Origin: an uncultured Dehalococcoidia bacterium
Lineage (GTDB): Bacteria; Chloroflexota; Dehalococcoidia; Lucifugimonadales; UBA3495
Assembly: GCA_950072105.1 (NCBI GenBank)
Contig: CATMOE010000090.1
Coordinates: 1 to 10,864, forward strand
Length of the DNA: 10,864 nucleotides
Reading direction: 5' to 3'
A model generated the notes under the pieces. It saw nothing but the letters and a program-made list of their open reading frames with translations. It was not told the DNA's origin and did not search any database. Below, piece by piece: positions 6,826 to 10,702 of this stretch. The stretch's first letter is position 1, and each line of letters starts with the position of its first letter. A program made the position numbers and the translations under genes.

Positions 6826-7842
6826 TCAGAAATCCGAAAGTCCGTTGCCCTTGGCCAGGCCCACCGCCAGCTTGATGGATTCCAGCATGCTAACCTCGCT
6901 GGCGATGCCTTTGCCGGCGATATCGAAAGCGGTGCCATGGTCCACCGAAGTGCGGACGAAGGGTAAACCCAGATTAGCGGTGATGCTTTCCTCGAATCCG
7001 TAGACCTTGACCGGTATGTGCCCTTGATCGTGGAACATGCACAGCACCGCATCGTACCGCCCTTGGATGGCCTGATGGAAGATTATGTCAGCCGGCACGG
7101 GGCCGGTGACGTCGATACCCCGCTGGCGGGCCGCCTCAACCGCCGGAGCTATCTCTTCGGCCTCCTCATTGCCCAGCAATCCGCCGTCGCTGCCGTGGGG
7201 ATTAAGGGCGGCCGCGCCGATCCTCGGACTTTTGAACCCCCAGCTTACGAAGTTGTCGTGGGTCAACTGAAGGAATTCTAGGATCCGGTCCTTCTTCACG
7301 TAGTCGCAAGCGATCCGCAACGACCGGTGTGTGGAGAGGTGCACCACCCGCAGATTTTTGGCCAGCAGCATGGTGGCTACCGTCTTTGCGCCGGATAACT
7401 CCTGCAGAAGCTCCATGTGGCCGATGGACTGATACCCGGCCAGGCTGGCTGCTTCCTTGTTCAGCGGCGCCGTCGCCAGACCGGCCACCACGCCGGCCAA
7501 CGCCAGTTCCCCGGCCCGGGTCACCCACTCCATGGCCGCCTTGCCACAGGTTGGGCTGATCTCACCCACGGTGATGTCTTCAGGGTTGAGGTTCTTTATA
7601 TCCAGGACGTCGATCACCTGAGGGTCATCTCCCGCCGTCGCCGGGTCGTCGGGTTCGTTTATGCGTAGTGATGTCCCCGTCAACTCCACCGCCTTTTGCA
7701 TGGCATAAACGTTGCCCACCACCAAGGGCCTGCAGGAGGCATAAACCCAAGCCTGGGATAGGGCTTTGACCACTACTTCCGGACCGATACCGCAGGGGTC
7801 TCCCATGGTTATGGCGATGGCGGGTTTTTCAATGACAGCCAT
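6826..7842 (-). CDS. pdxA: 4-hydroxythreonine-4-phosphate dehydrogenase family protein (PdxA / PdxA2-like)
   Basis: ITMGDPCGIGPE, TAPLNK, GHMELL, STH, NPH, FHDQGHIPVK and RTSVDHGTAFDIAGKG motifs. SD AGGAG at 7851-7855. Confidence 0.94.
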   Translation of the reverse strand: MAVIEKPAIAITMGDPCGIGPEVVVKALSQAWVYASCRPLVVGNVYAMQKAVELTGTSLRINEPDDPATAGDDPQVIDVLDIKNLNPEDITVGEISPTCGKAAMEWVTRAGELALAGVVAGLATAPLNKEAASLAGYQSIGHMELLQELSGAKTVATMLLAKNLRVVHLSTHRSLRIACDYVKKDRILEFLQLTHDNFVSWGFKSPRIGAAALNPHGSDGGLLGNEEAEEIAPAVEAARQRGIDVTGPVPADIIFHQAIQGRYDAVLCMFHDQGHIPVKVYGFEESITANLGLPFVRTSVDHGTAFDIAGKGIASEVSMLESIKLAVGLAKGNGLSDF

Positions 7843-7928
7843 ATTTACGTCTCCTGAATGCTGGACATTTGCGACGGTAATCTGTTTGAATGGAGTTACC
7901 GGTTTGGACCAACCTGGGCGCTGCCGAG

Positions 7929-7957
7929 ATTATAGCACCTGATAGGAGCAAATCAGG
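7929..7957 (-). promoter_or_regulatory. Extended -10 promoter for pdxA with an overlapping CCTGAT-N8-ATCAGG inverted repeat
   Basis: GGTGCTATAAT at 7939-7929. CCTGAT (7938-7943) / ATCAGG (7952-7957) spans the spacer and the -35 position. Confidence 0.55.
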
Positions 7958-8043
7958 CGGCCCGAAACGCGGTCCAAGGCGCAAATTCCGGAAAACTGAT
8001 AAGTCGATTACAGCCGGTCTGGTAACAGAAGAATCTTGACCGG

Positions 8044-8077
8044 AAAAGAGAAGCCCCCGGGGCCAACCGGGGGCTTC
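8044..8077 (-). terminator. Intrinsic terminator
   Basis: GAAGCCCCCGG-TTGGCC-CCGGGGGCTTC: perfect 11-bp stem with a 6-nt loop, followed by TCTTTT on the minus strand. Confidence 0.85.
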
Positions 8078-8222
8078 AGGGAGGAGGGCAGGCAGGTGCA
8101 TTGCACTGTCACCTACGAGGCTTAGCCACCTGTACCGTTGGGCGACCCCAACACTCCACCACCCGCACCTGCCTGTTGCCCCCAAAAATACTGATCAGGC
8201 GCCCGGCCCCCGGCCGGTTGGC
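8044..8222 (-). ncRNA. Candidate structured non-coding RNA of unassigned family, downstream of nrdJ
   Basis: Perfect 11-bp helix CAGGCAGGTGC/GCACCTGCCTG (8175-8165 with 8099-8089), extended by GGGGG/CCCTC including a G-U pair. It encloses the hairpins GTTGGG-GTCG-CCCAAC and TAC..GGC-TAA-GCC..GTA, and is followed by CCTCCTCCC and the terminator. 5' end uncertain (8183 or about 8222). Confidence 0.55.
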
Positions 8223-8266
8223 AAGTTTCTCCAGTCTCCAACGATTTCCGAGACCTAGCTTCATCT

Positions 8267-10702
8267 TTACTCGCACTTGTTCCATCCGCAGGAAACGCAC
8301 ATCAAGCACCCTTCCTGGTAGATGACCGGCGTGTTACATTCGGGGCATTTTCGGGCCTGGAAATAGCCGCTACCTTTAGACCCATTCCCATTGCCATTCC
8401 CGTTTCCGCCTTCCGCTAGAAGCTTTACCTGTACGCCGTTCTCGCCGGATTGTATCGGCAAGGCCGCGGCCTCTGACGTGTGTCGCTCCATGGCAAGAGC
8501 GACGGCGTCAGGACCCGAACGCACCAAGGTCCCATCATCCCAAGCCGGGCAGCAAGTGATTCCCCTAAGTTGCTCTATCACGATCTTAGGATCCAATCCA
8601 GAGCGAAGGGCTAGGGATACCAACCGGGAAATAGCCTCGAGTTGGGCCGAATCGCAGCCTCCGGCTTTACCCAGATTACCGAACACTTCGAAGGGGGTCC
8701 CTTCTTCGTCGAAGTTTATGGTCACGTACATGTTGCCGTGACCGGTGCGCACTCTCTCGGTGACGCCGCGGATGGACTGGGGCCGCCGCCGCGGTGTTTG
8801 GTAACCGGATTGGCCCGTTCCCAGCAACTCTGCCAGCGCGGCGCCAGAGTCCGATTCATCTTGCTTGCCGGTCGCGCCCGTGCTTAGGACCTGCCCGGAT
8901 TTACTACCGTCCCGGTACACCGTGATCCCCTTGCATCCCAGGTCGTAGGCCATGGTATAAGCGTTAGCCACGTCATCCGTCGTGGCATTATGAGGGAAGT
9001 TGATCGTCTTGGAAACCGAGTTATCGGTATATTTCTGGAAAGCGGCCTGCATCCGCACGTGCCATTCCGGGCTGATGTCGTGGGAGGTGCGGAAAACTCC
9101 TTTTACCCAATCAGGCACATCCAGGGTTTCTAGGCTACCCGTCTCCGCCAACTGTTCCATCAATGCTTCGGAGTAGAACCCTTCCCGCCGGGCCACTGCC
9201 TCGAAGTAGGGATTGACTTCCACCAGACGGGTGTTGTCCATCACGTTTCGGACGTAGCTGAGGGCAAACAGCGGCTCAATGCCACTGGAGGTACCGGCAA
9301 TGATGCTGATCGTGCCCGTGGGGGCAATGGTGGTGGGAGCCGAATTGCGCATGGGCCGCGGCTCCCCGAAGGGACCTGGAGTACTATAGGTACTGCCCGC
9401 CCACGCCGGGAAGGTGCCTCTTATATGGGAAAGCTCGCTGGATGCTGAAGCGGTCTCGTGATTAACACGAGCCATCACTTGTTCCGCCAGCTCCAAGCCT
9501 TCTTCGGAATCGTATTGGATGCCCATCTCGATGAGCAGGTCGGAGAACCCCATCACTCCCAGCCCGATCCGGCGGGTCGTCTTGCTCATCTCCTCGATTT
9601 CTTTGATGGGGTAGTTGTTCATGTCGATTACGTTGTCCAAGAGATGGACGGTGGTCCGCACCACACTTGCCAGCCGGTCCCAATCCATCGTCACGTCACC
9701 GTCCTGGTACCGGACCATGCGGGCCAGGTTAACCGAAGCCAGGTTGCAGGACTCAAACGGCAACAAGGGTTGCTCGCCGCAAGGATTGGTGCTCTCGATC
9801 GTTCCCAACTGAGGATTGGGGTTGTAGTGGTTGATCAGGTCCAGGAAAATCAAACCGGGATCTCCGGTCTTCCAGGCCATCTCCACCGCCAATTCAAATA
9901 TCTCGCGGGCGTTCTCCTGGCGGACCACCACTCCGGTACGGGGGTTAACCAGGTCGTAATCCTCACCCGACTTCACCCGTTCCATGAAGTCCCCGGTTAT
10001 GCCGATGGAGATGTTGAAGTTATTCAGGTTTTGGCCGTCTTCTTTGGACTGGATAAAAGTCCTTATATCCGGATGGTCTACGTTGAGAATGCCCATGTTG
10101 GCGCCCCGGCGCGTGCCGCCCTGCTTAACCACGTCGGTGGCGGTGTCAAAGGCCCGGATAAAGCTAACCGGACCGCTGGCGATTCCCCCAGTTGAGCCAA
10201 CCACGTCGCCCGCCGGACGCAAGCGCGTAAAGGAGAAACCCGTCCCCCCGCCGCTCTTATGAATCAGGGCCGTCTGCTTGACCTTGTCGAAGATCGAGTC
10301 CAGAGCGTCGTCGATCGGCAATACGAAGCAAGCGGAAAGCTGCTGCAGCTCCCGGCCGGCGTTCATCAATGTGGGAGAGTTAGGAAGACATTCCAGGCGC
10401 CACATCATTTCGTAGAATTCGTCTTCGGTGGCTTGCCGTTGCTCTTCGGTGGCTCCGTAGTTCAAGTCGGCCTGGGAAAGATTTTGAGCTACCCGGCGGA
10501 ACATGCCGTTGGGGTCTTCCAGGATGTTGCCTTCCCGGTCTTTAGAAAGGTAGCGGCGGTCCAAGACCACCTTGGCGTTTTCAGTCAGTTCTTGAGTCCG
10601 CTCGTTTATCAGCCGGGAAATGCCCGCCTCTGACAGTGCCAGGGCGATCGCCCGCCGCCGGTCATGAATCGATATATCAGAACTCTCGCGAGTGGTTGTC
10701 AT
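8267..10702 (-). CDS. nrdJ: Adenosylcobalamin-dependent (class II) ribonucleotide reductase with C-terminal TSCPD-like domain and zinc ribbon
   Basis: PNSPTLMNAG, QLSACFV, QGGTRRGANM, TNPCGEQ (thiyl Cys), SCNLASVNL, TTIAPTGT, SKTIN and CKGITVYRDGS motifs. C-terminal CPEC..CLMCVSCGWNKC. No ATP cone and no obvious intein. SD AGGAGG at 10711-10716. Confidence 0.97.
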   Translation of the reverse strand: MTTTRESSDISIHDRRRAIALALSEAGISRLINERTQELTENAKVVLDRRYLSKDREGNILEDPNGMFRRVAQNLSQADLNYGATEEQRQATEDEFYEMMWRLECLPNSPTLMNAGRELQQLSACFVLPIDDALDSIFDKVKQTALIHKSGGGTGFSFTRLRPAGDVVGSTGGIASGPVSFIRAFDTATDVVKQGGTRRGANMGILNVDHPDIRTFIQSKEDGQNLNNFNISIGITGDFMERVKSGEDYDLVNPRTGVVVRQENAREIFELAVEMAWKTGDPGLIFLDLINHYNPNPQLGTIESTNPCGEQPLLPFESCNLASVNLARMVRYQDGDVTMDWDRLASVVRTTVHLLDNVIDMNNYPIKEIEEMSKTTRRIGLGVMGFSDLLIEMGIQYDSEEGLELAEQVMARVNHETASASSELSHIRGTFPAWAGSTYSTPGPFGEPRPMRNSAPTTIAPTGTISIIAGTSSGIEPLFALSYVRNVMDNTRLVEVNPYFEAVARREGFYSEALMEQLAETGSLETLDVPDWVKGVFRTSHDISPEWHVRMQAAFQKYTDNSVSKTINFPHNATTDDVANAYTMAYDLGCKGITVYRDGSKSGQVLSTGATGKQDESDSGAALAELLGTGQSGYQTPRRRPQSIRGVTERVRTGHGNMYVTINFDEEGTPFEVFGNLGKAGGCDSAQLEAISRLVSLALRSGLDPKIVIEQLRGITCCPAWDDGTLVRSGPDAVALAMERHTSEAAALPIQSGENGVQVKLLAEGGNGNGNGNGSKGSGYFQARKCPECNTPVIYQEGCLMCVSCGWNKCE

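Follow-up and report, generated by a model that had tools for sequence, protein, structure and literature searches.

The window, by which we mean the whole 10,864-nt stretch of DNA that was analysed, comes from an uncultured Dehalococcoidia bacterium and carries on its minus strand the gene nrdJ and, downstream of it, pdxA, with a structured element between the two (Table 1). The product of nrdJ is presumably a class II ribonucleotide reductase, an assignment adopted from the original prediction; the closest relatives of the gene are mostly from Dehalococcoidia, Chloroflexota or SAR202. The letters quoted in that prediction were found on the minus strand at 8044-8183, as was an anti-SD motif before the terminator, and the distance given from the nrdJ stop to the terminator, about 190 nt, was measured as 191 nt. 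The description of this terminator as the RNA's own is only half right: the hairpin and its tail are present, but the minus strand showed no other terminator-like hairpin between 7000 and 9000, and this one must therefore be the terminator of nrdJ too. Moreover, pdxA has its own extended -10 promoter 3′ of the terminator in 67 of 72 loci; the element therefore need not be a pdxA leader, and the earlier idea of a cis-regulatory aptamer controlling pdxA is unlikely.

Table 1. Minus-strand features from nrdJ to pdxA, listed in the direction of transcription.
Feature	Position	Strand	Basis or detail
nrdJ-type ribonucleotide reductase, 811 aa (barrel, all-alpha and TSCPD domains)	8267..10702	-	
Spacer from nrdJ stop to rod, poorly conserved, with A/U-rich end (possible endonuclease site or weak -10)	8184..8266	-	
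Closing stem, 5′ strand	8165..8183	-	8183-8179 with C-rich tract; 8175-8165 with 8099-8089
Central bubble, 5′ strand, G/U-rich, 18 nt	8147..8164	-	
Apical arm	8108..8146	-	6-bp helix (8146-8141 with 8113-8108), 3 bp, 4-nt bulge (8135-8132), 4-bp hairpin, 6-nt loop
Central bubble, 3′ strand, purine-rich, 8 nt	8100..8107	-	
Closing stem, 3′ strand	8089..8099	-	
C-rich anti-SD-like tract CCCUCCUCCCU	8078..8088	-	about half paired to element 5′ end
Intrinsic-terminator-like hairpin and short U tail, common to element and nrdJ	8044..8077	-	hairpin 8077-8050, 11 bp, tail TCTTTT
pdxA extended -10 (TGcTATAAT), 3′ of terminator	7929..7937	-	
pdxA	6826..7842	-	

By sequence comparison, the element is real and under selection. 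Within one genus (15 loci), identity over the element is 0.91, versus 0.60 at nrdJ third positions and 0.59 to 0.64 in the flanks; across genera (6 loci), it is 0.72, against 0.45 for those third positions; unequal spacer lengths depress the 0.38 obtained for the spacer across genera. A repeat or mobile element was rejected, since the element is single-copy in its own genome and viral contigs gave 0 matches to its pattern. Of 202 family genomes searched by DNA, 18 proved to carry it, all 18 best loci lying between nrdJ and pdxA, and the pattern matches in metagenomes were likewise just after the nrdJ stop (13 of 13). Two models, R1 and R2, were built on the two long forms of the element. In 29 of the best 30 R1 matches, the locus includes nrdJ; the remaining one starts at a contig edge. 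R1 recovers the second long form (long-2) at 37 to 53 bits, and the best R2 match in the window's own genome is the window's element, at 49.8 bits, with the shared terminator supplying part of these cross-scores. By genus (working labels), R2 matched 20 of 20 genomes in g7, 4 of 21 in g21, 0 of 21 in g2 and 0 of 17 in g11. Outside the family, 144 genomes yielded just 3 weak R1 matches, all terminator-like and away from nrdJ.

Sorting by eye the DNA after the nrdJ stop in 80 loci, some of which duplicate genomes already counted, gave 12 long-1 forms (the window's type), 20 long-2, 4 short, 2 truncated and 42 loci without the element, truncation being seen in sister species. Farther afield, among 30 nrdJ loci from across the order, the C-rich tract and terminator were seen by eye in three other families without the rod described below, and no other part of the element was seen in SAR202 families beyond its own. 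This module has kept its place before pdxA in two genomes of another family, where, after an insertion, it lies 1.3 kb from nrdJ. The NrdJ tree (FastTree, 88 sequences, midpoint-rooted with no outgroup) places long-2 on one side of the root and long-1 plus the short forms on the other, with element-less groups nested among them, one large one inside long-2. This nesting suggests repeated loss, and lost elements are replaced by plain terminators. From these comparisons, the range of the element appears to be one marine SAR202 (Dehalococcoidia) family, with probable loss in several of its lineages.

The nrdJ-pdxA gap often holds inserted genes (L051, L084, L086, L092, L095, L105, L106, L112, L114, L195 and L196), which by eye are small toxin-antitoxin-like gene pairs and repressor-like plus transposase-like ORFs; at L051 and L084, the last nrdJ codons are unlike those of all relatives, as if replaced at integration. 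When R1 was run on 20 loci, some with genes inserted after nrdJ, a full match was obtained only in the uninterrupted long form L053. Long-2 loci (e.g., L072, L085 and L242) also carry a conserved AACCATACCAC-type motif 20 to 60 nt after the terminator and about 30 nt before the pdxA -10, possibly a transcription-factor site. Pairing of the bubble with a CA-rich motif after the terminator was considered and set aside, as it is found in part of the second long form only, and GTGTGGT was rejected as a genome-wide DNA motif because it is not over-represented (z 0.1).

The window's own minimum free energy fold is the three-way junction originally proposed (-74.8 kcal/mol, z -3.08, 0 of 200 shuffles). 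The plus strand of the element folds with a z of -4.20, and z-scores thus cannot choose the strand; the excess of G-U over A-C cells, 46 versus 8 in alignment A2 and 89 versus 10 in A3, does so, bearing out the earlier argument from G-U pairing for the minus strand. The junction itself, however, is not borne out. Across 15 homologues, it leaves 86.1% paired, a value that 25 of 500 shuffles reach, and its first hairpin is not conserved (60.5% and 77.8% paired); only in the window's genus is the 3′ end of the 5′ bubble strand able to make that hairpin. A rod, in which GUCGCC pairs with GGUGAC, gives 92.9% paired in the same number of long-1 homologues with 12 compensatory cells. No shuffle of 500 matches the rod's paired fraction, compensatory cells or covariation score, whereas both count-of-pairs measures are non-significant (59 of 500 and 380 of 500). 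Only the window's genus (3 of 15) has the two folds nearly level in energy, at -35.1 versus -34.2, and the rod is lower in the other 12. Pair counts and energies therefore led us to reject the junction. RNAalifold returns the rod for both long forms, and in long-2, 14 of 42 pairs (terminator counted) show compensatory changes, with 0 of 500 shuffles reaching this; related sequences may beat such shuffles even without structure, and slid controls drop to 30 to 50% paired. Taken together, the covariation supports a rod with a closing stem, a G/U-rich bubble, a short bulged arm, the C-rich tract and the nrdJ terminator. The rod is about 105 nt, with an arm of about 13 bp, and its shape (closing stem, central bubble, terminal stem) is confined to the long forms. 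A stem topped by a G/U-rich single strand, followed by the C-rich tract and the terminator, is shared by the long forms and by 8 of the 10 short ones. The search for homologues and covariation that the original prediction had proposed came out in favor of a structured RNA: the element is conserved in the SAR202 family and the rod stems covary.

The short forms are built differently. The last nrdJ codons have their complement in a strand 30 to 60 nt past the stop; this would place the stop codon in the loop and make the structure foldable only as part of the mRNA. This pairing beats nearly all upstream windows in 8 of 10 cases (0 to 12 as good, of 182 to 288), and the stem is weak in the other 2. 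No compensatory change is seen in it, and its 85% paired fraction is reached by 500 of 500 shuffles, because the coding side barely varies. Moreover, folds that enclose the stop are common, 84 of 182 terminated ORFs having at least 12 CDS-UTR pairs; hence, it is the rank tests, not folding alone, that make the case for the short-form stem. The notion that the long form is a duplicate of the last nrdJ codons is unsupported (a median of 30% of control windows do as well, 34 loci), and pairing of the long-form 3′ strand with the nrdJ end is not special. Selenocysteine read-through at the short-form UGA was also rejected, the read-through peptides being unconserved by eye. In L163-L165 (genus g11), an unrelated gene end, at about 1047-1157 of L163, has a stem of about 14 bp between its last codons and the 3′ UTR, together with a C-rich loop and a similar terminator.

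Is the element, then, an RNA in its own right? At E<=5, Rfam has no family that fits the element proper, in keeping with the original description of the RNA as unassigned, and on the window, Rfam gives only a chance-level anti-hemB match to the tract and terminator (E 4.2); ARAGORN finds no tRNA or tmRNA in the element. Fourteen marine RNA runs from 14 studies contain most of 7800-8600. In four RNA runs, the element lies within contigs of 678, 1810, 209 and 290 nt at nrdJ-like depths of 45, 13, 27 and 71, figures that carry no ends, strand or level, cannot rank genes and possibly include DNA; two RNA contigs continue into pdxA. As a control, the SRP RNA locus in the same four runs gives zero-mismatch contigs at depth 431 to 1884 over flanks of about 4 to 30. 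No such abundance peak over the element is seen in the four metatranscriptomes at contig level, where short RNAs may have dropped out in library preparation; stacking the entire depth of the 678-nt contig on the element would, by arithmetic, give about 250, the SRP RNA itself spanning about 200 nt. A contig break at 8028/8057 in two runs was rejected as an RNA end, its 30-nt overlap being typical of a graph branch. Among the origins first offered, derivation from a 3′ UTR fits best, while a stand-alone abundant sRNA or a 6S RNA is not shown, there being neither an SRP-like peak nor a 6S profile match.

The 6S possibility deserves a closer look. A shrunken 6S RNA would bind sigma-70 RNA polymerase as a promoter mimic, and the closing stem, central bubble and terminal arm of the long forms are also those of 6S RNA (RF00013; Dehalococcoides sRNA1). 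Rfam 6S is over cut-off in 0 of 39 relatives and 2 of 121 class genomes, so that the 6S RNA of SAR202 is unaccounted for, and the proposed Dehalococcoides 6S is likewise described as Rfam-negative in the passages of PMC12961961 that deal with it. The same passages give that RNA (sRNA1) as 188 nt and third in abundance after the rRNAs (PMC12961961), and the Rfam model RF00013 has 187 positions. The element, in contrast, has a rod of about half this length, a G/U-rich bubble and no abundance comparable to SRP RNA in the same runs (a weak point, made at contig level); a profile of three Dehalococcoidia 6S matches (nhmmer) does not match it; and its patchy distribution, with absence from more than half of the 80 nrdJ loci, truncation in sister species and coding overlap in the short forms, does not fit a 6S RNA. 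A 6S function is thus very improbable, and on present evidence the element is not the missing SAR202 6S RNA. Synteny did not lead to a 6S RNA either: by eye, no 6S-like rod was evident after aspS, before tig or beside five tRNA-Arg genes, and no hpt orthologue was over cut-off. Canonical-looking 6S RNAs are present in other Dehalococcoidia, after aspS (L117) and before tig (L116).

Other housekeeping RNAs were considered on the same footing. SRP RNA sits elsewhere in the window's own genome, at L007:1501-1708 on contig C1, where the Rfam small-SRP match covers 98 nt and the abundant RNA contigs are about 110 nt longer, which suggests a large, Alu-domain-type SRP RNA. A two-piece tmRNA was rejected: the own genome has no detected tmRNA, yet 4 of 5 relatives carry an ordinary one. 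tmRNA was not found in two searched genomes of the window's genus (G000 and G001), possibly an assembly gap, and four other family genomes carry one. A Y RNA was likewise rejected, the Ro/TROVE protein being absent in 3 of 4 carriers searched and present in G008. The own genome also has about 29 tRNA genes on one strand of contig C23 (about 17600-22100), an array that is probably on a mobile element.

The anti-SD-plus-terminator layout resembles that of MmgR/SuhB, which makes a released sRNA the main rival to the reading we prefer, a cis-acting tail of the nrdJ mRNA. Such an sRNA, of about 145 nt, would be derived from the 3′ UTR by an endonuclease cut at the A/U-rich site or by a weak internal promoter, and its C-rich tract or G/U-rich loop would block the ribosome-binding sites of other mRNAs in the manner of MmgR/SuhB but without Hfq. 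It gains from the tract and terminator being the most widely kept part of the element, from CCTCC before terminators not being general here (4 of 180 versus a background of 1.7%), and from the A/U-rich stretch 5′ of the rod. In the accounts given in PMC7143759 and in part of bioRxiv 10.64898/2025.12.09.693200, MmgR/SuhB (RF00519) and anti-hemB (RF02837) share with the element a short stem, a CU-rich anti-SD tract and a terminator hairpin. The Rfam likeness is nonetheless below threshold for both, at 25.3 versus 41 bits for suhB/MmgR (in one short form, L173) and 17 versus 49.5 for anti-hemB, and where those two families are described as Hfq-dependent trans-encoded sRNAs in the same partial accounts, Hfq was not found in any of 5 genomes. 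Other points against such an sRNA are that pairing takes up most of the tract's first half (P unpaired 0.0 to 0.4 in 13 of 15), that the loop sequence differs between clades, and that no abundance peak is seen. A CCUCCUCCC tract is common to the element and the alpha-r14/cuckoo RNAs. The element has a single copy of it, in stem and linker, whereas the alpha-r14/cuckoo RNAs carry their motif in the loops of three hairpins (PMC7143759). On balance, we regard a released sRNA as a possibility of some weight, if an unlikely one.

A second way for the tail to act would be to fold back on nrdJ's own ribosome-binding site and first codons and block translation, as in the icaR 3′ UTR. For the window's own genome, a pairing of -28.6 kcal/mol is predicted between the nrdJ start and the 5′ strand of the bubble, which puts nrdJ at rank 10 among 3005 predicted starts, the strand having been picked after the match was seen. 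In long-2, 14 of 15 loci, all of them close relatives, have 0 to 20 windows out of about 60 that do better than the 3′ strand of the bubble. These matches do not extend to other long-form clades, where 32 to 59 of about 60 windows are better (6 loci) and several start regions are themselves G/U-rich. The C-rich tract fares no better, ranking 687 of 3005 against the nrdJ start and showing no significant covariation with its own SD (p 0.38 in 27 loci, 0.19 in 12 representatives). The regulatory 3′ UTRs of S. aureus icaR and B. subtilis hbs, as treated in parts of PMC7821165, do resemble the element in having a long structured tail, a C-rich anti-RBS-like motif and an intrinsic-terminator end, and are likewise lineage-specific and exchanged between relatives. 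Unlike them, as far as that account goes, the element gave no sign of conserved pairing to its own RBS, has most of the motif hidden inside the covarying rod, and in some forms would fold around the stop codon. Repression by such fold-back is, in our judgment, a slim prospect.

It could also be that the structure does nothing but protect the mRNA end, or that it is a ligand-binding or leader-peptide switch for read-through into pdxA. Repeated loss in exchange for plain terminators would fit a dispensable role of this kind, and the rod contains readable small ORFs that have SD-like starts, one of which, in long-2, has three Cys codons before its stop. Passive protection is at odds with unpaired and apical bases that are far more conserved than neutral sites, and the switch with the separate pdxA promoter and with the lack of matches to any Rfam riboswitch model, cobalamin included. 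As for peptides, only 8 of 32 changed codons in the long-1 ORF are synonymous and the frame is broken in 2 of 15 loci, while the Cys frame has 1 synonymous change of 15 and lacks its stop in L242. Small ORFs were rejected because the frames that end inside the element show no coding signal. Contrary to this, in a different frame of the second long form, 10 of 13 changes are at third positions; this was treated as an effect of GUG-type repeats, since ATG is present in only 4 of 20 loci, L075 has an internal stop, single-base indels shift the frame, and there is no stop within the element. The three Cys codons and stop of the long-2 arm lie in the apical hairpin (A3 columns 50-64), and a leader peptide there is unsupported. 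Altogether, a passive structure or a switch of this sort strikes us as improbable.

The reading that we tentatively put first at somewhat less than an even chance is that the element is the structured 3′ UTR of the nrdJ mRNA, acting in cis on the lifetime of that mRNA, and not a separate gene. According to parts of PMC7821165, hairpins impede PNPase, and 3′ UTRs are bound by proteins or sRNAs or pair with their own RBS; these precedents are why a cis element is favored. There is no terminator between the nrdJ stop and the element, a conserved TGnTATAAT-type promoter before the element was not evident by eye in the nrdJ loci, and the rod is absent from family loci with insertions after nrdJ. 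On the other side stand the A/U-rich stretch, 11 to 15 nt before the alignment starts and 72% and 89% AT, which, if it were a -10 box, would make the long forms separate transcripts, and the fact that the deepest-conserved part, anti-SD plus terminator, has the layout of a base-pairing sRNA, as well as the two genomes in which that module has stayed with pdxA and not with nrdJ. In the mechanism that we envisage, the element would be transcribed as the tail of the nrdJ mRNA and act on it; 3′-to-5′ decay would be obstructed twice, by the stem of about 17 to 20 bp and by the terminator hairpin, with the stem hiding most of the C-rich anti-SD-like tract; and the G/U-rich bubble might be where a partner, either an RNA-binding protein or a complementary RNA, docks to open the stem. 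For short forms, whose stem is made with the last nrdJ codons, this opening may fall to the translating ribosome. A more speculative extension, which we think has little likelihood as it stands, is a 3′-end feedback switch on dNTP supply. Here, a scaffold either set around the nrdJ stop, where it reads ribosome completion, or free in the UTR would present the G/U loop to a metabolite-responsive partner, and opening would unmask the anti-SD tract, with no part for Hfq.

SAR202 bacteria are abundant in the deep ocean. Our literature search found no paper on this element, on structured RNA motifs of SAR202 or on regulation of SAR202 nrdJ. Absent from Rfam 15, the element is a new RNA motif, restricted in lineage, whose broad kind is known but whose two architectures make an unusual pair, and it is a solid candidate for curation. 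Its naturally occurring long and short forms offer a comparison for the origin and loss of 3′ UTR regulators. A covarying element fixed at the end of a ribonucleotide reductase mRNA points, at the level of sequence, to control of DNA precursor synthesis that may be exerted post-transcriptionally at the 3′ end.
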